Position numbers and translations under genes: made by a program. This document shows positions 4,118-54,759 of a stretch of DNA of 64,000 bases, in pieces. The notes under the pieces are model-generated. The model saw nothing but the letters and a program-made list of their open reading frames with translations, was not told where the DNA came from and made no database searches. Position 1 is the stretch's first letter, and each line of letters opens with the position of its first letter. The stretch lies in IMG/VR virus record IMGVR_UViG_3300045988_145635, one strand, 5' to 3'. The DNA is from a virus. Its lineage: Duplodnaviria > Heunggongvirae > Uroviricota > Caudoviricetes.

Positions 4118-4190
4118 TTTCATTGATAGGTAAGTGCTTATCTATTAACATGGGCCACTATATTTAGTGGCCCTCTTTATTTGGTGATAC

Positions 4191-8703: not shown

Positions 8704-8846
8704 TTGTAGGTAGTTATCTATCTATGTATATTGTGTTAGCGCGTTAAATTCCTGAAACAACTATTCATTTTGGTGGCCTATGGCCACCATTTTTTTATCT
8801 ATCTGGCCTTGTTCCCTCAATAAATGTAAACTCACGTAATGAATAA

Positions 8847-9977
8847 GTGATTACTTATCTTTGTGAGGTTTTTGTGTCACTCCTTTTGAATCGTGAGCAT
8901 ACGAACGGTCAGGTAACAAACGCATCGTATGCAAAAGTTATTGAGACGGTGCTTAAAAGCGGCGTGCAGGCTGATGATCGCACAGGCACTGGTACTTTAA
9001 GCACCTGCTACGTTCCCTCTTACTACATGCTTACTGGTGGGACTGTGCCGCTTATTTCTGGAAAGGCGGTAAATCTTAAGCCACTGCTTGTCGAACTTGA
9101 GTGGTATCTGAAAGGCACGGGCAACATCCAATTTCTCAAGGATAACGGCGTTAAGATTTGGGATGCATGGGCCGATGAGAATGGCGATTTGGGGCCAGTT
9201 TACGGTAAGCAGTGGCGTCGATGGGAAGATACCCGCATCGTGAGCCATAGTGAATATCTGAGCAAGATCGCTACTTTCCGTGAACGCGGGTACAAAGTCG
9301 AGGGATACCTAGGTATCAGTGAAGATCGCGTAGTGCTGTCCCGTGAAATCGATCAGCTACAGCGTATTGTCGATACACTGCGCACGAACCCTACCGATCG
9401 TCGCATCATGCTTAACGCATGGAACGTAGGCGAGCTTGAGGATATGAAACTGCCACCTTGCCACTTTGTCTTCTCTTTGTGGAGTCGTGAGCTTGATTTT
9501 GAAACCCGTTTAACGATGGCAACTGACATTGGTCTTCAACACAGTCGCCTCGGTTACGAGTCTATCTACACCAAGATGCTATACGATCTGGAGATGGACG
9601 GCAGTGTTACTGAAGCTGAACTGGATGAACTTGGAATCCCCAAACGCATCCTCAACTCCTGCCTCGTACAGCGTAGCGTAGACACTTTTGTTGGTATGCC
9701 ATTCAATATTGCTGGCTATGGCATTCTCACTCATTTTCTCGCGAAGATTACGGGTCACATGGCCGGTGCATTTGTGCATTTTGGCTTTGACGTGCATTTG
9801 TACAACAACCACATGGAAGGTGTGTGTGAGCTAATGAAACGACAGGCTCCAGAGCATTCAGATCCGGTCGTTATTTTCCCTCATGAATGGTCAGAGTTGG
9901 ATGATTTCAAATGGGACGAGGTTTTAATTCTTGGCTATGACCCTCTATCGTGGATCAAGGTTCCAGTGGCGGTGTGA
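8847..9977 (+). CDS. thyA: thymidylate synthase homologue with internal insertion
   Basis: DRTGTGT, IWDAWADENGDLGPVYGKQWRRW, active-site LPPCH and DTFVGMPFNIAGY blocks; about 45 extra residues between the PCH and PFNIA blocks; start codon uncertain (ATG 8847 or GTG 8874). Confidence 0.85.
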   Translation: MITYLCEVFVSLLLNREHTNGQVTNASYAKVIETVLKSGVQADDRTGTGTLSTCYVPSYYMLTGGTVPLISGKAVNLKPLLVELEWYLKGTGNIQFLKDNGVKIWDAWADENGDLGPVYGKQWRRWEDTRIVSHSEYLSKIATFRERGYKVEGYLGISEDRVVLSREIDQLQRIVDTLRTNPTDRRIMLNAWNVGELEDMKLPPCHFVFSLWSRELDFETRLTMATDIGLQHSRLGYESIYTKMLYDLEMDGSVTEAELDELGIPKRILNSCLVQRSVDTFVGMPFNIAGYGILTHFLAKITGHMAGAFVHFGFDVHLYNNHMEGVCELMKRQAPEHSDPVVIFPHEWSELDDFKWDEVLILGYDPLSWIKVPVAV

Positions 9978-11999: not shown

Positions 12000-12557
12000 A
12001 TGACAACGATTGTTGCAGGCATCGATATCGAGTCTACGGGACTGGATTTCCTTGCTGGTCATAAAATTATTGAAATCGCAATTACCCGCTATGAACTGGA
12101 GACACAGAGACATATTGATAGTCTGGAGATGCGTTTTAACCCTCGCAGAAACATAGATCCGAAAGCTCAAGCCGTTCATGGCATTTCATTGGAACAGCTC
12201 GCAGCTGAACCTTTGTTGTCAAATCATGCCAGCGAAATTGGCGCTTATATGGGGGCATGTAGTGTGTGGGTTGCTCATAACGGCGAAGCATTTGATATAC
12301 CATTTATTCGACACGAGTTTTCAGGGTATGGAGTAAGACTGCCAGAAGTTCCTGTTATAGATACTATGTTATCGGGATTGTGGGCCACAGAAGACGGTAA
12401 ACGTCCCCGCCTTGAAGAGTTGGCCTTCTCTCTTGGCTTTATATACGATCATGCCAAAGCACATAGTGCCTTATATGACACAAACTTAATGATGCAATGC
12501 TTCTTTAAGGCACGTAATAAGTACGGATTTTTTAAATTACCCTCTGAAATTGTGTAA
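12000..12557 (+). CDS. DnaQ-like 3'-5' exonuclease (DEDDh family)
   Basis: Exo I GIDIESTG, Exo II VAHNGEAFDIPF, Exo III HSALYD motifs. Confidence 0.75.
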   Translation: MTTIVAGIDIESTGLDFLAGHKIIEIAITRYELETQRHIDSLEMRFNPRRNIDPKAQAVHGISLEQLAAEPLLSNHASEIGAYMGACSVWVAHNGEAFDIPFIRHEFSGYGVRLPEVPVIDTMLSGLWATEDGKRPRLEELAFSLGFIYDHAKAHSALYDTNLMMQCFFKARNKYGFFKLPSEIV

Positions 12558-12715
12558 AACAAAAGCCTACTTTAAAAAGTTTAAAGTAGGCTTTCTTTTA
12601 AAGAACAGTCGCCTTTCAATCATTTCCTGCCTGTATTTAATACTTTTCCGCCTGATAGGTTTAGTCAAAATGTAGCCATCGAAACGCAAATGTAACCAAA
12701 CAGAAGGAGACTTAC

Positions 12716-13525
12716 ATGAGTTCGGTTGAAAATGTAATGACAAATGATGATCTGGACGAGCTGGCAGCCATGTTGCAATCACTTGATGAACCAGTAAAAA
12801 AAGCTGCGCAGGTTGAAAATACTGATGATATTGACGATCTGCTGCTCGGCCTAGATGCTGGCGTAGCCATGAGTTCTGATGATGTTGCCGAAGAACTGTT
12901 CAATGAAGAAAAAGCAGGTGATTTCAGCTCAGCTTTAAATGAGTTGGAGTTAGCGCATGAGCCTATAAACGTAATTAACGCTGAAAGTGGTGAAGCTGCC
13001 GAAAACGAACCAGAACAGTTGGGGATCATCGAGGTTGAAGGGTGTGTTGAGATTAATGATGAATTAAAAGTTCAACAGTCAAATGATAGCAACACAAATA
13101 AAAAAGCGCGTACTGCAAGAGGTCCTCGTTTTGCTCTAAGTGATAAAGATGATGCGTTTTTCAATAAAGCGGGTTTAGAGAAAGATATTTTTTTAGACGC
13201 TTACGATAACGCGCCTGTCAAAGCAAAGGATAAGATATTAAACCTTCTTAATTGGTTTAGCGGAGGTCCAGATATTAGTGTTTACACGGTAATTTCCATG
13301 AGACACCTTCTCACAGAAAAGAAGGCTACAAGTAATAGTATTAAGATTGCTTTAATGAGCAATCCAGAAAAACCGTATCCGCTTAACACTGCGTCAACTC
13401 AGGCTGGGCAAATGATGGCTGTATTTCCAGCGACAGGAATTGCCGTTAGAGACGGTGGAAATCTAACATTGAACGAAGAATCACCGATCGTTAAGAAGTT
13501 TGTCGCGGAGTACACTATTGGATGA
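12716..13525 (+). CDS. hypothetical protein with highly acidic N-terminal half
   Basis: 269-aa ORF; first ~130 residues are strongly D/E-rich. Confidence 0.5.
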   Translation: MSSVENVMTNDDLDELAAMLQSLDEPVKKAAQVENTDDIDDLLLGLDAGVAMSSDDVAEELFNEEKAGDFSSALNELELAHEPINVINAESGEAAENEPEQLGIIEVEGCVEINDELKVQQSNDSNTNKKARTARGPRFALSDKDDAFFNKAGLEKDIFLDAYDNAPVKAKDKILNLLNWFSGGPDISVYTVISMRHLLTEKKATSNSIKIALMSNPEKPYPLNTASTQAGQMMAVFPATGIAVRDGGNLTLNEESPIVKKFVAEYTIG

Positions 13526-13708
13526 CGTTCCCCTACTGAAAATAAAGCCCATAGAGAGCTTTATAGTGCTGGGTAAGCCAATCACATACCCAGCACCACA
13601 AAAACGCGCCAGAGAGCTTCTCGTTTGCATTTCTGGCGCGTTTTATTTGATTGCCAGACATAAAATCAAATGCAAAAATAGGTATTTACTTACCTATCGA
13701 GAAAGAAG

Positions 13709-14302
13709 ATGATTGCAGCCGAAAAAATCAAACAGCGAAAGCGCGACAACTCTCTTCGTGACCTCTGGAGAACACCTGACTGGCTGTTTTCTGCCATTCA
13801 ACGTTATCTTGGAGTGACATTTGATGTTGACGTTGCCTGCAACAAGGACAATGCAAAGCTGCCTAATTTCATAGGCGTTGAGCGTGATGCTTTGAAATCT
13901 GAATGGGGACAGCCAGGTACAATTGCCTTCCTCAATCCACCCTACTCCAAAATCTCCCCCTGGATTGATGCGGCTATACGTGAGCAGGCTCGCGGAGTTA
14001 CAACAGTGATGCTAATTCCTCAATCCCTAGATACAAAGTGGTATGAGCGTGCAACAGAGTGTGCGAATGAGACGATTATTCTGTCTGGTGGCCGCGTAGC
14101 GTTTGTCGAGCCTGACGTCAATCTGGGTCAGGTAGAAGTAAACATCAACCCAGGTGGCAGTATGCTCGTTGTTTTTCGAGGATTCTGTCAGGACGCTGGG
14201 CACTCTATAAGCAAGATCCCTTTGGACGTCATGAAAAGTCTGGGAGGGTATGATCCTGCGAATGTGATCAGGAAAAAAAGACCATCAAAGAAGGCTGCTT
14301 AG
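13709..14302 (+). CDS. DNA N6-adenine methyltransferase (phage Dam-like)
   Basis: FLNPPYS catalytic motif in a ~190-aa protein typical of small phage adenine methyltransferases. Confidence 0.75.
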   Translation: MIAAEKIKQRKRDNSLRDLWRTPDWLFSAIQRYLGVTFDVDVACNKDNAKLPNFIGVERDALKSEWGQPGTIAFLNPPYSKISPWIDAAIREQARGVTTVMLIPQSLDTKWYERATECANETIILSGGRVAFVEPDVNLGQVEVNINPGGSMLVVFRGFCQDAGHSISKIPLDVMKSLGGYDPANVIRKKRPSKKAA

Positions 14303-14324
14303 TTTGTTCTGGCGTCTGTAATTA

Positions 14325-14381
14325 GCCTGCTTCTGTATATATAAATAACTACATATTAATTATTAATATACGGAAGCAGGC
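14325..14381. repeat. long AT-loop hairpin element, copy 1
   Basis: GCCTGCTTCTGTATATAT ... ATATACGGAAGCAGGC inverted repeat (about 16-bp stem) downstream of the Dam-like gene; near-identical copy at 45681-45736. Confidence 0.7.
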
Positions 14382-14487
14382 TGTTTTGTATCAGAGACTC
14401 CAGACCTGAACATCACTACAGAATCCACTAGAACCCCTTCCCAGACGCTTTAAAATCGATTTTATGAACCACTTTAAGGAAACCAAC

Positions 14488-14715: not shown

Positions 14716-15303
14716 TGATAGATAAGTACAAACTATTCATAAAGTGAATTGTAAGTGCTAAGATCTGATAGTTTCCAGTCGTAGACTGGAGACTCGACCT
14801 GATGGGTGGGGGTAAGCGTCACTGGCGTCAGGTTTAAAAAAAGCTCACTACCAGCGTAGAACTGGTGCCGTTTAGGTGTCGGGGAAGGGGGAACCAAAGT
14901 GAGCGGAGACAAGGGTCACTTTATGATTGTCGAGTCTGGGGTGTTTCGAGAGGTTGAATCCAGTACTCCCCTTCATAAAGTGTGGGAAGATCTCGGTTCT
15001 GGGGTGCTGTCATCCATAACTTCCCAAGTCTAAGCTGGCAGTAGACTTAGACCATAACTTTTCAGGTTATGAAACGACCAGGTTGGTGAGGGATTTTTAT
15101 ACTCACCTCCCTGGGAGAGTATTACCTGAAAAGACAACCTCTCACTTCGTTCGAGGTGAACTTCACTCACTTCGTTCGTTCAGTTCAGGTTTATAAAAAC
15201 CTGTTCTGGGAAGTAATTTGTTTATTTTAATAATTATTAACACGCACGCGTGTGCGCACGCGCGAGGAAAAAAATCGGCGCGGCGCTTGATTCAGGAGTT
15301 TAT
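14716..15303 (+). other. ORF-free structured intergenic region (candidate ncRNA or regulatory region)
   Basis: ~590 bp with no ORF of 60 aa or more in any frame; G-tracts, repeated TCTGGGGTG and CACTTCGTTCG units, and a 25-bp alternating CG/CA tract at ~15240-15268. Confidence 0.3.
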
Positions 15304-15897
15304 ATGACGACGAAGACACCAGCCCGATCGCAAGAAAAAACTCGCAAAAAAGCCAAAAACAAAAATTCTCCCCGCACCAATTCCACAACGCCTGTCGTAG
15401 AGTTCAATCCCCAGCTTAAAACCGTGAAAATCTTCAGTGATGGCTCTTGCCTTAAAAATCCGGGTGGCCCGGGCGGTTACGGTATAGTTCTCCAGTATCG
15501 TGGTGAGGAACGCGAGTTCTCAGATGGTTTTCATAGCACCACCAATAACCGCATGGAGATGATGGGGGCACTTATCGGGCTGGAGCGTTTGAAATATCCA
15601 TGCAACGTTATTTTGCACTCTGATAGCCAGTATCTGAAAAACGGCATGACACAGTGGATGAAATGGTGGAAACGCAATGGATGGATGACTTCTGACAAAA
15701 AACCGGTAAAGAATGTTGATCTGTGGAAGCGTCTGGATGAGGCCGCAAGTCGACATAATGTTCGCTGGAAGTGGGTTAAAGGTCACGCCGGGCATCGTGA
15801 AAATGAAATATGTGATCGACTCGCGAAGATCGCAGCTTTTTCCGCAGCAGATATGCCTCACAAGAAAGATATTGGTTTTGTTTACAACAAGCAGTAA
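15304..15897 (+). CDS. rnhA: ribonuclease HI
   Basis: Strong collinear match to recalled E. coli RnhA ([62 protein letters not shown]); start placed at ATG 15304 after an AGGAG site. Confidence 0.9.
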
Positions 15898-16042
15898 GTA
15901 AGTGTTTACCTATCATTTTAAATCATGTATCTTATCGGCGTCAGGATGACAATGTGTCGGTAAGACACAGTTCCAGGATGGAACGAGAAAGGCGGCTGGC
16001 AATCGCCAGCCGCAACTCTTTCTGACACTGGATGGAGTCCAC

Positions 16043-19187: not shown

Positions 19188-20873
19188 ATGAATACAGCTC
19201 TTTCCATCATCGACGATGCCAACTCAAACACTGCTATCGATTATCGTCAGGAAATGAACGTCATCCACGAAATTGTGGCCGAGTGCGAGAAGGAGATCGC
19301 CTTCATGTATCAGGTTCACGACTTCGTTTATGGAGACGAACGCCACAACATGATTAATCGCCTGCTGCAACTGAACCACCGACCAGATGAAGAACGCTCA
19401 CGTTTGAATCGAGCTTGGCTGGATAAAGTCGATCTGGAATGGGTGAAACAGAATATTTGGGCCGAGTACTGGAGGAAGGTCACGGATATGACTAACGTTC
19501 TGCTGATCATGCCAGCTTCCCGTCGCGACGAGTGGCGTGAGCAGTTTATCGAGGGTAAGCAGGAAGTCATCAAAACTGACAGAACCGGCTATCAGATGAA
19601 GGTAAAAGAGTTCGTTGGTGTACCGGAGTTCAAAGCAGAAACGGTCATACCCACGATGCTTAATTTGCTGAATGACAGGCACAAATATCTCTCTGAGCGC
19701 GTGTATGGCTTGTTTAAGGCGCTGAGTCCTGCGCACAAGACAAATAAGACAAACGGTTTCAGCGAACGTCTGATAATCGCTGACTGCATTTCTGATTTCT
19801 GGCGGGACAGCGTTAGTGTGAACTATCGCAAAGAGGACTATATCGACGATCTGCGTGTCTTGCTTCATTTCTTCGCGCACAAAGAATTTATTACCATCAA
19901 CCGCACTGCTGAGGTGCTATCAGCTGCGTATCGGGCAAACGACTGCCAGACCGGTGACTGGATGAACGTCGATGGAAATCTGATGCGCGTGAAGATGTTC
20001 AAGAACGGCAACGTTCACTTTGAAATACATCCTGACGTGGCCTGGAAGTTGAATGAGGTGCTGGCTTACAGTATGCCTGCTGCAATCCCCGCGCCATGTC
20101 GCACCGCGCCAAAAACACGGGCACCAAAGCAGTTCGGGTTAATCCAGAAGACGATCTCCGTGCCGGTTCGCACTGCGCTTCGTGACGGGCGATTGAGCAA
20201 AGACAAAGGCGTATGGTACTTCTCTGATTCAGCTCTCCAGAAGTCGCAGGTGGAAGAGCTTGAGCGCACACTGAGCTTCATTGGCGGCGTGCAGGAGAAA
20301 AAGCACTGGCAGTTCCCGTATGACATCGTCCATACGCTAAATACGATTGTGGCTACCGGTTTAATACCGGATACAAAATCACACCAGTTCTACCCTACCC
20401 CACGCTTGATTGCTGAGTACGTTGCCAGAGCCACTGAATTGAAGCCTGGTGAGAAGCTGCTGGAGCCTCAAGCCGGACGTGGGGATCTTCTGGCCTATAT
20501 TAACGCCGATCTGGAAGATGTTACCTGCATAGAAATCGCACCTCTCTTCGCTGATATCCTGCGTGGAAAAGGGTATACGAACACGATTTGCTGCGACTTC
20601 ATAAAGTGGTCTGAGGACAACGTAGGTTATCAGTTCGACAAAATCGTTATGAACCCGCCGTATTCGCTTGGTCGTCATAGAGAGCACACGCTGGCTGCGC
20701 TGGGGCATCTGAAAGTCGGCGGGCGTCTTGTAGCAGTATTGCCGGGCACTGCGCCAATACTGGACTGGATGACGATGGATAATTACGTTTATGCCAGAGG
20801 GAAGTCGTTTACCAACGAGTTTGAAGACACAGGGATCACAGTCAGCGTATACGTTTTCAAACGCGTTAAATGA
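19188..20873 (+). CDS. DNA N6-adenine methyltransferase with large N-terminal domain of unknown function
   Basis: C-terminal region has motif I LLEPQAGRGDL and motif IV VMNPPYS (gamma-type order); N-terminal ~400 aa unassigned. Confidence 0.65.
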   Translation: MNTALSIIDDANSNTAIDYRQEMNVIHEIVAECEKEIAFMYQVHDFVYGDERHNMINRLLQLNHRPDEERSRLNRAWLDKVDLEWVKQNIWAEYWRKVTDMTNVLLIMPASRRDEWREQFIEGKQEVIKTDRTGYQMKVKEFVGVPEFKAETVIPTMLNLLNDRHKYLSERVYGLFKALSPAHKTNKTNGFSERLIIADCISDFWRDSVSVNYRKEDYIDDLRVLLHFFAHKEFITINRTAEVLSAAYRANDCQTGDWMNVDGNLMRVKMFKNGNVHFEIHPDVAWKLNEVLAYSMPAAIPAPCRTAPKTRAPKQFGLIQKTISVPVRTALRDGRLSKDKGVWYFSDSALQKSQVEELERTLSFIGGVQEKKHWQFPYDIVHTLNTIVATGLIPDTKSHQFYPTPRLIAEYVARATELKPGEKLLEPQAGRGDLLAYINADLEDVTCIEIAPLFADILRGKGYTNTICCDFIKWSEDNVGYQFDKIVMNPPYSLGRHREHTLAALGHLKVGGRLVAVLPGTAPILDWMTMDNYVYARGKSFTNEFEDTGITVSVYVFKRVK

Positions 20874-20934
20874 TAGGTAAATACTTACCTAATTTGTGTA
20901 AGAATGTAGTTACTAAACGATAAGAGAAAAACAC

Positions 20935-42445: not shown

Positions 42446-42466
42446 ATAAGTAAGTGATTACTTAGT
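42446..42466. promoter_or_regulatory. class B palindrome (AATAAGTAAGTGATTACTTAG) in a divergent promoter region
   Basis: Sits in the 65-bp gap between the divergently transcribed helicase and ParB-like genes. Confidence 0.45.
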
Positions 42467-45389: not shown

Positions 45390-45656
45390 ATGACGTTAAC
45401 CGATAAACAAAAGGACATCATCAAAACGCTCAATCTCGGTTATGAGCGAGGTCATTTACTTGATCTGGACGAATTGCTTGAAGTTTTGCCGTACAAGACA
45501 ACCAAGCAAAGTATCCAGTTCTCAATTCGCGCTCTGATAAAAAAGGGGCTGGTGGAGAAAGGGCATACGCGCCAACGCAGTGACAATCGCTATCACCGCC
45601 GGACTCTTGGGTTAACCACTTTAGGTCGAGCCAAAGCGAAGTTACTGGTGATGTAA
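45390..45656 (+). CDS. small putative DNA-binding protein
   Basis: 88-aa basic protein with helix-turn-helix-like segment. Confidence 0.4.
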   Translation: MTLTDKQKDIIKTLNLGYERGHLLDLDELLEVLPYKTTKQSIQFSIRALIKKGLVEKGHTRQRSDNRYHRRTLGLTTLGRAKAKLLVM

Positions 45657-45680
45657 TCGGTCTGGGAGCTTATTTAAAGA

Positions 45681-45736
45681 CCTGCTTCTGTATATATAAA
45701 TAATAAGTAACTTATTAAATATATACGGAAGCAGGC
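45681..45736. repeat. long AT-loop hairpin element, copy 2
   Basis: CCTGCTTCTGTATATATAAATA ... ATATATACGGAAGCAGG, near-identical arms to 14325-14381. Confidence 0.7.
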
Positions 45737-45770
45737 TTAGTAAGACATGCCCAGACCTAATTAAACACCC

Positions 45771-45818
45771 CAGAAAACAAGTTGGTTAGCATATGCAGTA
45801 AACAAGTTGTTTTAGAGC
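45771..45818 (+). promoter_or_regulatory. class A motifs (two adjacent copies)
   Basis: CAGAAAACAAGTTGGTTAGC and GTAAACAAGTTGTTTTAGAGC upstream of the terminase small subunit gene. Confidence 0.5.
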
Positions 45819-45852
45819 GCATGGACGCGCTCTGTGTGTTTTAGAGGGATCT

Positions 45853-46485
45853 ATGACGGTCGAAAAAGACGAGGTAAAAACTCGCCTGACACCAGCGGAG
45901 TGGGCCGAAGCTGAAGCCAAATGGACGTCAGGCGAATATACACTCTCAAAGCTGGAGGAAGAGTACGGCATTCGTCGTGAAACACTCTCCAGACATTTCA
46001 AAAAGCGAGGATTAGAGAAAGGCGCGGACTCTGTTGGGAAGATGGTTCGTGAGTCTCTTAAATCTGACGCAGAGCTTCGCGCTAAAGCCCGTGCGGAAAA
46101 GATAGAAGAACGTCGTACACGTTATGACGGCTGGGCGTATGCGTTGGGGCAGATGGTGATGGTCGAAGTCACTACGGCCAAACGTGAGGGTAAGCCTTTA
46201 GGGGCGATTGAGGATTCTCTCAAGAGCTTACAGAGAGCCAGTAATACCCTTGCAAAATGCTTTGAAGTTTCGTCCAAAGCATTGGGCATGGATCATGCGG
46301 AAAATGACGAGGAAGAAATTCCGAACCTGGTATTTGGTGAGCTTACGCCTTCCCAGGTGGCGAAATTACGTCAGGAAGACGACGAGCCTGAAATCATCGA
46401 TGACGAATTGCTTGAGACGTTGGAAGAAGAAGCTCTAAGCGAATTTGATGCGACAGATGATGGAAGTGAAGGGGAGGACGAATAA
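45853..46485 (+). CDS. putative terminase small subunit
   Basis: Position immediately upstream of the large terminase; N-terminal helix-turn-helix-like region; acidic C-terminus. Confidence 0.55.
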   Translation: MTVEKDEVKTRLTPAEWAEAEAKWTSGEYTLSKLEEEYGIRRETLSRHFKKRGLEKGADSVGKMVRESLKSDAELRAKARAEKIEERRTRYDGWAYALGQMVMVEVTTAKREGKPLGAIEDSLKSLQRASNTLAKCFEVSSKALGMDHAENDEEEIPNLVFGELTPSQVAKLRQEDDEPEIIDDELLETLEEEALSEFDATDDGSEGEDE

Positions 46486-47741
46486 TGGCAATCCCGTCCT
46501 CGCTCAGTCTTGTGCAACTGCATTCTGGACAGATGAAAGTCTTCCAGTCTCCGCATCGATTTAAAGTTGTTTGTGCTGGTCGACGCTGGGGAAAATCCCG
46601 GTTGTCGATCTCCACTATTATTCGTGCGGCGGCAAAGGAAAAAAAGCAAAGGGTCTGGTATGTCGCTCCTACTTACCAGATGGCTCGTCAGATTTTGTGG
46701 GACGATCTACAGGAAGTTCTGCCCCGTAAGTGGGTTAGGAAAAAGAACGACACCACGATGACAATCGTGTTGAAGAACGGTTCGGAGATCGCCCTCAAAG
46801 GTGCTGATAAACCTGACACTCTGCGCGGCGTAGCGTTGCATTTTGTAGTGCTTGATGAATTTCAGGATATGAAGGCTGACACCTGGTACAAGGTGTTACG
46901 ACCTACTCTTTCATCGACACGCGGCGGTGCACTGATCATTGGTACGCCAAAAGGCTTCTCGGAATTTCACAAACTGTGGACTATAGGCCAGAACGTAGAG
47001 CTGCAAAGAAAGGGACAGTGGAAGAGCTGGCAGTTTGTAACTGCTGATTCGCCGTTTGTGCCTACGGCGGAAATTGAAGCTGCTAAGAACGATATGGACC
47101 CTAAATCGTTCGCTCAGGAGTACCTGGCCAGCTTTGAAAATATGTCCGGGCGCGTTTACTACCCGTTCGATCGAAACGTGCATGTTAAACCGCTTCAGTT
47201 CAACCCTCGGTTGCCTATATGGGTAGGACAGGACTTCAACATTGACCCGATGTCTTCCGTAATTTTGCAACCTCAGCCAAATGGTGAGCTATGGGCAATT
47301 GATGAATTGGTGCTCTTTTCCTCTAACACGGCAGAGGTTTGTGATGAGCTTGAGAGACGCTTCTGGCGCTGGAAATCACAGATAACGGTATTTCCAGATC
47401 CGGCAGGTGCTTATCGCCAACATGCTCGCGGGGAGTCTGACGTCGACATATTCAAAGAGAAGGGATTCTTACGTGTCGATTATTCGAAAAAGCACCCGCC
47501 AATTGCGGATCGTGTTAATGCTGTTAACCGAATGCTGATGACCGCATCTGGAGATATCCGGCTGTATATCGATCCGAAGTGCAAGCATTTGATTGATTCA
47601 TTGGAAAAAGTCATCTACAAGCCTGGAACACGAGATATGGATAAGACAGGTGGCATTGAGCATAGTGCAGACGCATTGGGCTATCCAGTACATCGTAGGT
47701 ATCCAGTCAAAAACCGTGTTATTCTTGGTGGCTCTCGATAG
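46485..47741 (+). CDS. terminase large subunit
   Basis: Walker A VCAGRRWGKS and Walker B FVVLDEFQ in the N-terminal ATPase domain; C-terminal nuclease-sized domain. Confidence 0.85.
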   Translation: MAIPSSLSLVQLHSGQMKVFQSPHRFKVVCAGRRWGKSRLSISTIIRAAAKEKKQRVWYVAPTYQMARQILWDDLQEVLPRKWVRKKNDTTMTIVLKNGSEIALKGADKPDTLRGVALHFVVLDEFQDMKADTWYKVLRPTLSSTRGGALIIGTPKGFSEFHKLWTIGQNVELQRKGQWKSWQFVTADSPFVPTAEIEAAKNDMDPKSFAQEYLASFENMSGRVYYPFDRNVHVKPLQFNPRLPIWVGQDFNIDPMSSVILQPQPNGELWAIDELVLFSSNTAEVCDELERRFWRWKSQITVFPDPAGAYRQHARGESDVDIFKEKGFLRVDYSKKHPPIADRVNAVNRMLMTASGDIRLYIDPKCKHLIDSLEKVIYKPGTRDMDKTGGIEHSADALGYPVHRRYPVKNRVILGGSR

Positions 47742-47759
47742 GTAAGTAATTATCTAAGG
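47737..47759. promoter_or_regulatory. class B palindrome (GATAGGTAAGTAATTATCTAAGG)
   Basis: Between terminase and portal genes. Confidence 0.4.
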
Positions 47760-47767
47760 TTATTCAA

Positions 47768-49342
47768 ATGGAATTGAACGACAAACAAATTAAGGATCTG
47801 GTGGTGCGACGCCACCCGGAATACGAAAAGAAAAAAGAACATTGGGACTTCCTCGCCAGCACTTACGCTGGCGGGCGTGGTTGGTTTACAGACAATATCT
47901 TTCGTTACTTTAAAGAGGGAGATCAGGAGTTTAAGGAGCGAGTTGAGCGTGCTTATCGCTTCAACCACACTCGTGAGGTGGTAAACCTCATCAACAAATA
48001 TCTCTTTAAAGAAGACATTCATAGAAATATCGAAGAGGCACCAGAGCAGATCCGCAATTTCTGGAAACGTGCGACTCGCCAGAATGCCTCTATTGACTCA
48101 TTTATGGCCGCTATTGATTTGCAGTCGTCTATTTACGGTCGCATATGGGTTGTTGTCGATAGCACGATGAGTGGTGATGTTGAGTCAGTAGCTGACGAGA
48201 AAAAGAAAGATGCTCGCGCCTACGCCTACTGGATTTCACCTCAGCAAATGCTGGATGTGGCATGGGACGACGACGGGAATATGTTATGGGCGTTAATTGT
48301 GGAAGTCGCTCGCGATGACGCAGATCCTTTTACTTCTACAGGTCAGGAATACCAACGTTATCGTCTGTGGACACAAAACGAGTGGTATCTGTTCCGTGAG
48401 GAAGTGAAGAAGGGGGCTGGTGGAGCAGGTCGTCGTCAGGCAAAAGTTATTTTAGAGGACAGCGGCGCGCATAATCTCGGCGTAGTTCCTGTGTTTCCTG
48501 TTGATTGTATTGGAGAAAGTGAATCACCGTATTTCAGCCCATCGTTGATCGATGATATCGCTTATCTTGATCGTGCGGTTGCAAACTATCTGTCAAACCT
48601 TGATGCCATTATTCAGGATCAGACATTTAGCCAGTTGGCTATACCGGTACAGTCGCTTTTACCTGGTGATGAAAACCACACTAAAGTGCTTGAAATGGGC
48701 ACAAAGCGAGTCTTCACCTACGATTCTGAAGGTGGAAACCAGCCGTTTTATCTGTCACCAGACCCGAAACAAGCTCAGATGATCATCACTACGATTAAGA
48801 CGGTGATTAACGAAATCTACCATTCAGTTGGTGTAGCTGGTGAGCGAACGAAGCAGGACAACGCACAGGGAATCGATAATTCATCTGGTGCCGCAAAAAT
48901 GTATGACTTCCAGCGTGTAAATAGCTTGCTTGTCACAAAAGCAGAGCGTCTGGAAAGGGCTGAACGCCAAATCATGCTACTGGTTGCGAAATGGATGGGG
49001 GTAGATCTGGACGAAGACCACTCTTTAATTGCGTATCCAGAAAGTTTCGATATTCGTGGCCTTACTGATGAATTTTCTGTTGCCGAGAAACTGTCATTAC
49101 TTCAGGCACCGGACTCTGTACGTCGTCACCAGATGGAAATGCTTATTGAGAAGATTTTCCCGAACATTACTGAGGCGATGAAAAAGGAATTTGATAAAGA
49201 TCTCTTGAATTTTCCTCCAAAAAATGATCTAAATACCCTTGAAAATAAGTCAGTACTTACTTATGATCGTGGTGCAGCCCAAGAAAGCGGGCAAGATCAA
49301 CCCCGAGGGAATGGGGACTCATCTACTCAAGAGAACGAGTGA
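47768..49342 (+). CDS. portal protein
   Basis: 524-aa protein immediately after the large terminase; acidic C-terminus; position and size typical of portal proteins. Confidence 0.75.
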   Translation: MELNDKQIKDLVVRRHPEYEKKKEHWDFLASTYAGGRGWFTDNIFRYFKEGDQEFKERVERAYRFNHTREVVNLINKYLFKEDIHRNIEEAPEQIRNFWKRATRQNASIDSFMAAIDLQSSIYGRIWVVVDSTMSGDVESVADEKKKDARAYAYWISPQQMLDVAWDDDGNMLWALIVEVARDDADPFTSTGQEYQRYRLWTQNEWYLFREEVKKGAGGAGRRQAKVILEDSGAHNLGVVPVFPVDCIGESESPYFSPSLIDDIAYLDRAVANYLSNLDAIIQDQTFSQLAIPVQSLLPGDENHTKVLEMGTKRVFTYDSEGGNQPFYLSPDPKQAQMIITTIKTVINEIYHSVGVAGERTKQDNAQGIDNSSGAAKMYDFQRVNSLLVTKAERLERAERQIMLLVAKWMGVDLDEDHSLIAYPESFDIRGLTDEFSVAEKLSLLQAPDSVRRHQMEMLIEKIFPNITEAMKKEFDKDLLNFPPKNDLNTLENKSVLTYDRGAAQESGQDQPRGNGDSSTQENE

Positions 49343-51152: not shown

Positions 51153-51186
51153 TCAGTGTGGTAGATAAGCAATTATCTATGTTTAA

Positions 51187-54734: not shown

Positions 54735-54759
54735 AATCGGTAAGTATATACTTACTATT
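54735..54759. promoter_or_regulatory. class B palindrome with perfect GTAAGTATATACTTAC core
   Basis: Located upstream of the major tail protein gene. Confidence 0.45.

Follow-up and report, generated by a model that had tools for sequence, protein, structure and literature searches.

The viral record IMGVR_UViG_3300045988_145635 was analysed as one stretch of 64,000 nucleotides (64 kb; hereafter the window), in which an earlier note, made from the letters alone, had described a pair of near-identical long hairpins at two distant loci. The window is 97-99% identical to the Escherichia phages CMS-2020a, Cyrano and PhiR41_1 and 77-80% identical to Salmonella phage SSU5 and Klebsiella phage-plasmids; because of these identities, it is assigned to a ~108-kb SSU5/pHCM2-type phage-plasmid of Escherichia coli, of which it forms a part. 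Cyrano is itself the pLF82 plasmid of strain LF82. The first hairpin (copy 1, site c1) lies in the 3' untranslated region of a dam-type adenine methyltransferase gene, and the second (copy 2, site c2) in that of the final gene of a block encoding ParB-like proteins and an ABC ATPase, an 88-aa open reading frame (ORF; Table 1). Beyond copy 2 lies the structural block, which opens with the small terminase gene terS and also contains the large terminase gene (terS-terL). As judged from sequence comparison, the two hairpins belong to a conserved, three-copy element of ~100 nt from a clinically widespread group of phage-plasmids, unannotated and absent from Rfam.

Folding, a repeat search and a covariance model all bore out the pair of hairpins, whose earlier coordinates (14325-14381 and 45681-45736) were right to within about a base and are corrected here to 14324-14382 and 45681-45737. 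On careful alignment the arms are complementary in both copies, each stem consisting of 17 pairs (16 Watson-Crick and one T.G, or G.U in RNA) in near-identical palindromes of 57-59 nt. The loop, earlier put at about 25 nt and AT-rich, is better described as an AT-rich centre of 21-25 nt, with a single G/C in copy 1 and two in copy 2, that is partly paired: in copy 2, seven more base pairs (AATAAGT/ACTTATT) make up an apical stem. Both copies are stable when folded as RNA over 81 nt, at -29.6 kcal/mol for copy 1 (z-score -7.1) and -31.0 kcal/mol for copy 2 (z-score -8.3), with none of 200 shuffles as good; DNA parameters give z-scores of -7.4 and -8.4, respectively. The repeat search of the window grouped them as a family with two 57-nt copies, 82% identical, and exact matches to the 15-nt arm CCTGCTTCYGTATAT within the window are confined to the four arm positions. 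A covariance model of the hairpin family, run on the window with filters off, scored copy 2 at 94.1 bits (E = 2e-16) and copy 1 at 71.5 bits (E = 6e-12), and neither this model (next best match E = 0.1) nor an arm search allowing three mismatches found further copies in the window. No Rfam 15 family reached its gathering score anywhere in the window. A terminator scan of the window listed neither copy, because its loop limit is 3-8 nt.

The inner hairpins are long, as had been noted, but the size of the whole element was understated, with an outer inverted repeat extending the fold to 100-130 nt. This repeat is common to all three sites: the left arm is preceded, at a distance of 12-27 nt, by (G)GTCTGGG(AG), and the right arm is followed 13-31 nt later by CCCAGA(CC), with TCTGGG/CCCAGA as the core of the outer stem throughout. 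CCCAGAC occurs only twice on the + strand of the window, each time less than 70 nt 3' of a hairpin, and folds of 131-141 nt that include the outer stem have z-scores of -4.8 (c1), -9.3 (c2) and -5.2 (c3). In the c1 alignment, the TCTGGGA/TCCCAGA columns pair in 9-11 of 11 sequences; the E. coli form TCTGGCGTCT is a degenerate version of the family motif GTCTGGGAG, which is kept at c1 in other lineages. In the c2 alignment, columns 41-49 pair with columns 134-141, and paired changes have occurred in two lineages, from GTCT/AGAC to AACT/AGTT in that of the Salmonella element AnCo3 and from GGG/CCC to GGGG/CCCC in another. The inner stem has likewise changed on both sides at four positions of CCTGCTTCCG, alongside half-changed states. 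The spacers between the inner and outer stems vary in sequence and length between lineages and between sides, and are unequal on the 5' and 3' sides (12-13 vs 13-17 nt at c2; 13 vs 18-31 nt at c1). These unequal internal loops, easy for a single strand and awkward for a cruciform or a fixed protein complex, together with the paired outer-stem changes, are mild evidence for a structure formed at the RNA level. On the sense strand, G.U cells outnumber C.A cells (~19 vs 5 at c2; 12 vs ~6 in the pooled alignment), an asymmetry that was set aside as a test of RNA against DNA, the lineages being too few and too related.

A search beyond the window revealed a third copy in the same genome. In PhiR41_1, c3 occupies positions 13116-13170 of the extracted locus L007, between a type Ib parA operon and an operon for a 246-aa protein, a DnaB-like helicase and a primase; the 246-aa protein has no relative in Pfam, NCBIfam or the PDB. 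The three sites are thus after dam (c1), before terS (c2) and after the par operon, before the helicase/primase operon (c3). The complete elements Salmonella AnCo3 and Klebsiella pJN2-26 carry exactly three copies each, at the same three sites; c1 is also occupied in Cyrano, and orthologues of c2 are present in SSU5, Yersinia pMT1, Kluyvera and Klebsiella. Single copies are retained by Yersinia pestis pMT1 (c2) and by a 61-kb Enterobacter plasmid (c3). In IMG/VR, 97 exact-arm and 163 relaxed-arm matches were examined, and 162 of the latter could be assigned to a neighbouring gene, all of them in the three syntenic sites, while the remaining one lacked a recognizable neighbour. The element is present in 780 plasmids of PLSDB and in 258 of 5,426 complete E. 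coli genomes, at one to three places each and always on plasmids, with no chromosomal copy among the 5,426. It is annotated in none of these 258 carriers, and the searched literature on SSU5, pHCM2, pMT1 and Cyrano contained no description of the element, of its cleavage by RNase III or of virion ends.

Several lineages carry different DNA upstream of c3, the replacement reaching to the very edge of the left arm, with a constant flank downstream. Some members of the E. coli lineage have a 255-aa gene, encoding a LEM-3-like GIY-YIG nuclease domain (PF22945, E = 6e-7), inserted between the par operon and c3 (L007 positions 12233-13000; PhiR41_1 74232-74999, - strand). At the same spot Cyrano has a + strand gene of 267 aa and AnCo3 has nothing, and the left border of c3 is therefore an insertion point for cargo. 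The earlier suggestion of a recombination hotspot finds hints here, namely the concerted evolution of the copies and the upstream DNA of c3 that differs right up to the left arm, and nothing firmer.

The position of the element relative to genes is regular. As had been noted, both window copies lie just 3' of + strand genes, 21 nt past the dam stop codon (14302) and 24 nt past that of the 88-aa ORF (45656). Wherever a co-directional gene lies upstream, the inner hairpin is found 21-31 nt past its stop codon, with the whole element starting a few nucleotides past the stop, and promoter-like sequence follows the hairpin at c2 and c3. In both window copies there is thus a stable hairpin just downstream of a co-directional gene, as in an intrinsic terminator. 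The 9 nt that follow the last G-C core of the copy 1 stem, CTGTTTTGT, include six T; across 28 distinct c1 sequences, the tail averages 5.4 T of 9 on the sense strand compared with 3.1 on the antisense strand, and the corresponding values at c3 are 4.9 and 4.0, with a T7 tract in Klebsiella c3. These sense-strand U-rich tails of c1 and c3 are kept across lineages although the flanks diverge, whereas the tail of copy 2, CTTAGTAAG, has three T in nine, compared with the about five or more U in 8-9 nt expected of an intrinsic terminator.

A scan of genome contigs with TerS gave only four loci, and one for the Klebsiella oxytoca arm likewise only four. More distant relatives whose TerS is 53-61% identical have other hairpins at the same position before terS: one has a recognizable family left arm followed by T8, one is unrelated in sequence, and two have long AT-rich regions with short outer stems. 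Of the K. oxytoca unit, the right half and little of the left arm survive, followed by TCTTTTTTAT. K. oxytoca plasmid CP056499.1 also holds, at 1286-1743 (L173), two diverged family units inverted 210 nt apart, which fold at -154 kcal/mol over 478 nt around a 210-nt core with its own hairpin and CCCAGA motifs; this inverted pair may represent a mobile element of miniature size or encode a small RNA.

Transcription across the sites was read from published RNA-seq of LF82/Cyrano lysogens, tabulated per gene as log2(FPKM+5), where FPKM is fragments per kilobase per million mapped fragments and the floor is 2.32 (supplementary file 2 of PMC9928086). Genes CYRAN_28-30 of the par operon are expressed at 5.2-10.8, and the next co-directional gene, CYRAN_31, at 2.3-4.2 (PMC9928086). 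The 193-nt gap between CYRAN_30 and CYRAN_31 contains c3, the sole covariance-model match in this locus, placed 24 nt past the CYRAN_30 stop codon and followed by the tail TCTTTTAAAG. Across it, expression drops by 3.4-7.9 log2 units at the gene level. Because expression falls to the floor across the short gap that holds c3, lysogen transcripts probably end at or near this copy, as read from gene-level RNA-seq. The drop across c2 is weak, with CYRAN_123 reaching up to 6.6 and terS 4.9-5.6; it amounts to at most ~2 log2 units in eight of ten samples and is absent from the two in which both genes are near the floor. Separately, the small ORF CYRAN_81 (~14900-15034 in the window), ~520 nt downstream of c1, stands out ~12-fold over the prophage background in the lysogen, between silent neighbours (PMC9928086), and is a candidate moron or small RNA that has a promoter to itself.

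The reading favoured here, with a probability of roughly 0.55, is that the three copies are RNA-level hairpins that terminate, insulate or process transcripts at the borders of gene modules. The earlier proposal of strong terminators fits copy 1, whose U-rich tail CUGUUUUGU is kept across lineages, and the orthologous c3 with its drop in expression; it fits copy 2 less well, which lacks the U-tract that defines an intrinsic terminator. By their sequence, c1 and c3 look like long intrinsic terminators. The hairpins would divide three large co-directional blocks of the circular SSU5-type genome, with c1 closing the replication and nucleotide-metabolism block after dam, c2 the accessory, immunity and ParB/ABC block before terS, and c3 the structural, lysis and par block before the helicase/primase operon. 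Polymerase arriving from the upstream operon would transcribe the element from a few nucleotides past the stop codon, whereupon the GC-clamped 17-bp stem would form; at c1 and c3, this stem and the U-rich tail would release the transcript and thereby insulate the next block, whose own promoter would sit between the hairpin and its first gene.

Read-through could have a further consequence. The 17-bp stem, the 7-bp apical stem of copy 2 and the outer stem of 8-10 bp provide a helix of the length used by RNase III (about two turns, or 20 bp and more), at least 24 bp and nearly continuous, and the 3' half of the lower stem lies beyond the U-tract. The long duplex would consequently exist only in read-through RNA, in which addition of the 3' outer-stem half (CCCAGA) would enlarge the helix to an imperfect duplex of more than 30 bp, a possible target of RNase III like that at lambda tI/sib. 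Alongside the observed anatomy, synteny and conservation of the element and the gene-level drop across c3, we infer termination at the two window copies and an involvement of RNase III, the latter, sib-like part drawing on anatomy and on what is known of lambda. Since copy 2 lacks a U-tract and a canonical hairpin with a T-run follows it 76 nt downstream (45813-45834), it may be mainly a processing or stabilizing hairpin, or a weak terminator backed by the canonical one. The leader of terS (45772-45852) also contains two AAACAAGTTG motifs (45772-45811) ahead of this GC-rich, terminator-like hairpin and T-run, which leave only 18 nt to the terS ATG, an arrangement reminiscent of antiterminated late leaders, e.g. 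lambda PR'/tR'.

Several observations weigh against transcript-end elements of this kind. The RNA-seq support is per gene and concerns c3 only, and the two genes next to c1 do not rise above background in the lysogen. At c2, a U-tract is missing from the E. coli, SSU5 and K. pneumoniae lineages, with a mean of 2.9 T in 9 over 33 variants. In PhiR41_1-type genomes, c3 is intact though no + strand gene reads into it, the GIY-YIG gene upstream being on the opposite strand. The covariation score was equalled or exceeded by 12 of 500 shuffles, a weak statistic because few independent lineages were sampled. The element is also conserved to an unexpected degree: it is ~94.5% identical among E. coli, SSU5 and Klebsiella, against 77-80% for their genomes; conservation of the AT centre and outer hexamers extends to sequence, beyond pairing; and the three K. 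oxytoca units are ~90% alike despite poor folding and the loss of most of the left arm. Copies within one genome resemble each other, all three in AnCo3 sharing the same derived centre. A plain terminator needs no such conservation, which could point to a sequence-specific factor, although gene conversion between copies would also be compatible with the likeness within genomes.

This conservation is central to a rather unlikely alternative, in which the repeats would be duplex-DNA sites for a protein of the phage-plasmid, serving as dispersed centromeres, silencing operators or lytic origins with the AT centre as the unwinding element. In such a site, the inner arms and outer TCTGGG/CCCAGA hexamers would be laid out around a bendable AT centre, in line with the cross-genus constancy of all three parts in sequence as well as pairing, the co-variation of copies within a genome, and the conserved K. 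oxytoca unit that makes a poor hairpin. The setting is also suggestive: the copies lie 23-50 kb apart on the ~108-kb circle, c3 is flanked by the type Ib parA operon and the operon for the 246-aa protein, DnaB-like helicase and primase and has stayed with this downstream module through exchanges of the upstream DNA, c2 is preceded at 2-3 kb by two ParB/Spo0J-like genes, and CCAGA(C/A) motifs repeat ~20 nt apart 3' of the hairpins. However, spacing between inner and outer repeats that is variable and asymmetric (13 to 31 nt) is ill-suited to a fixed complex or a cruciform, and the paired outer-stem changes are confined to c2 of a single lineage, in whose genome the standard motif is retained at c1 and c3. 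A protein site likewise gives no role to the sense-strand U-tails or to the fixed distance from stop codons. The arms tolerate one to three mismatched positions, no IHF or DnaA consensus was seen on reading the sequence by eye, and protein-family searches of the neighbouring genes identified no binding protein. Comparably tentative is the proposal that the palindromes are more than terminators, acting as cis-acting switch points that a sequence-specific factor of the phage-plasmid reads, either as dispersed centromeres and silencers of lytic blocks used by a ParB/ParG-type protein, in the manner of N15, or as a sib-like RNase III device acting on antiterminated read-through; if true, either form would couple plasmid maintenance to the lytic programme.

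It is improbable that copy 2 is instead a cos or pac packaging site, cut by terminase inside the AT centre, with copies 1 and 3 as non-functional or auxiliary paralogues. Its place 116 nt upstream of terS-terL is the usual one for cos/pac, it is the copy that has no U-tract, and its flanking palindrome is longer than those of the other two (z-score -3.4 for the flank duplex and -9.3 for the 131-nt fold). Furthermore, the linear GenBank records of virion-derived SSU5 (NC_018843.1) and of Cyrano (OV696614.1) begin exactly at the c2 right arm and end in the AT centre, their ends meeting without gap or overlap at the equivalent of window 45718/45719. This opening inside c2 could mark a true end of the genome, or the point where a contig broke at a repeat present three times: the SSU5 break falls at the start of the shared repeat arm, where assemblers break contigs, Cyrano is a re-annotated plasmid whose paper reports no end determination, and further records in the group are either circular or opened at another point. 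Wrong cuts would moreover be likely with three near-identical copies in each genome in place of a single site, and where TerS is 53-61% identical the hairpins at this spot are unrelated or degenerate. TerL, only ~25% identical to T5-like and Jersey-like terminases, is too distant to predict the mode of packaging. Hardly any weight is given to a selfish or neutral repeat, akin to miniature inverted-repeat transposable elements (MITEs) or repetitive extragenic palindromes (REPs) or produced by ectopic gene conversion, that persists at recombination-prone junctions. A palindromic structure resembling terminal repeats, the inverted, miniature-element-like K. oxytoca units 210 nt apart, the replacement of DNA at the left arm of c3 in several lineages, including by a free-standing GIY-YIG nuclease gene, and the signs of concerted evolution would all be in keeping with it. 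Yet all 162 assignable instances are at the three syntenic sites and none at a new one, the chromosomes of the 5,426 complete E. coli genomes are free of copies, a transposase or RAYT partner is absent, and identity exceeds that of the neighbouring coding DNA. Membership of the REP, bacterial interspersed mosaic element (BIME) or MITE classes was accordingly rejected, on synteny and absence from E. coli chromosomes. A protelomerase target (telRL) was also rejected: the related replicons examined are circular, the three copies are imperfect, and no protelomerase appears in the annotations examined.

The window holds other repeats and hairpins (Table 1). A second repeat family is a 20-bp palindrome with the consensus ATAGGTAAGTnnTTACCTAT, found at ten positions, mostly in short gaps between co-directional genes and often just 5' of a start codon; it also occurs in Klebsiella pJN2-26, and a similar sequence, ATAAGTAACTTAT, forms the apex of hairpins c2 and c3. 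The palindrome might serve as an operator, in translation or transcription, or form a small hairpin in mRNA. The palindromic 15-nt motif AGAAAACAAnTTGTT lies 30-50 nt upstream of several of the start codons checked, twice before terS, and looks like a phage-specific promoter or operator. An ordinary terminator-type hairpin at 13601-13644, AAAACGCGCCAGA...TCTGGCGCGTTTT, follows a 269-aa gene and has clean compensatory changes among E. coli, Salmonella, Klebsiella and K. oxytoca, making it a yardstick for the drift of a plain terminator stem in these genomes.

Table 1. Positions of the hairpin elements, adjoining genes and other repeats in the 64-kb window.
Feature	Position	Strand	Details
dam-type adenine methyltransferase gene	13709-14302	+	3' untranslated region bears copy 1; Pfam PF05869, E = 2.5e-38; Cyrano annotation
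Outer stem 5' half, copy 1	14308-14317	+	TCTGGCGTCT; pairs with 14395-14404 in RNA fold of 14290-14420
Hairpin copy 1 (c1)	14324-14382	+	Arms AGCCTGCTTCTGTATAT (14324-14340) and ATATACGGAAGCAGGCT (14366-14382); T.G at 14334/14372; AT-rich centre 14341-14365
U-rich tail, copy 1	14383-14392	+	GTTTTGTATC
Outer stem 3' half, copy 1	14395-14404	+	AGACTCCAGA; downstream of U-rich tail
88-aa ORF (phrog_900)	45390-45656	+	Final gene of ParB-like/ABC-ATPase block; 3' untranslated region bears copy 2
Outer stem 5' half, copy 2	45659-45666	+	GGTCTGGG; begins 3 nt past 88-aa ORF stop codon
Hairpin copy 2 (c2)	45681-45737	+	Arms CCTGCTTCTGTATATAT (45681-45697) and ATATATACGGAAGCAGG (45719-45735); AAA/A internal loop; apical stem 45701-45707/45711-45717; 3-nt loop
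Outer stem 3' half, copy 2	45750-45757	+	CCCAGACC
terS, small terminase/DNA-binding protein	45853-46485	+	Opens structural block, 116 nt 3' of copy 2
20-bp palindrome	4126-4145, 8839-8858, 13678-13697, 15894-15913, 20873-20892		
20-bp palindrome	42446-42465, 47738-47757, 49245-49264, 51161-51180, 54736-54755		
AGAAAACAAnTTGTT motif	6566, 16798, 17527, 30180, 30231, 32866, 33351, 34255, 35018, 45772, 45797	+	15 nt each

SSU5/pHCM2-type phage-plasmids are common in clinical Enterobacteriaceae and carry resistance genes. An element that marks the borders of their replication, accessory and structural blocks would offer a first handle on their operon structure, and the three-copy hairpins would account for the breaks that draft assemblies and the SSU5 reference record have at these points. 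The most likely role is an ordinary one, as operon-boundary terminators or processing sites. If the copies are plain terminators, their value is for annotation only; if they are bound by a protein or sib-like, they bear on the switch of the replicon between plasmid and phage modes.

Among known systems, the intrinsic terminators of enterobacteria and their phages share with the element a GC-clamped hairpin just 3' of a stop codon, a sense-strand U-rich tract (at c1 and c3) and a gene-level drop in expression (across c3). They differ in that their stem-loops are usually 20-30 nt, compared with 55-59 nt here, while the present element has an AT-only centre with pairing of its own, no U-tract in copy 2, and a sequence conserved across genera and three paralogous sites. 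At lambda tI/sib, a terminator hairpin is embedded in a longer imperfect helix, and RNase III cuts the read-through duplex; the element resembles this arrangement in that the 3' half of its helix lies beyond the termination point, leaving the long duplex to read-through RNA alone. The RNase III sites of T7 are similar in forming several related copies between gene blocks, but they have a characteristic internal loop at the cut, whereas the upper helix here is almost perfect. Neither lambda sib nor the T7 sites are similar to the element in sequence, and it has no Rfam match. The dispersed palindromic centromere or operator sites of plasmids and plasmid prophages, such as the sop sites of N15, the KorB OB sites of RK2 and P1 parS, are 13-20 bp or consist of short boxes with fixed spacing. 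Like them, the element comprises a few palindromes placed around a plasmid-prophage at the borders of phage blocks, one of them by a par operon, with ParB-family genes present; unlike them, it has variable spacing and a fixed distance from stop codons. Finally, the REPs and BIMEs of E. coli are also intergenic palindromes of 3' untranslated regions that are able to stabilize upstream mRNA, but REPs are ~35 nt long and present as hundreds of non-syntenic chromosomal copies, in contrast to the three syntenic copies described here, none of which is found on the 5,426 E. coli chromosomes.

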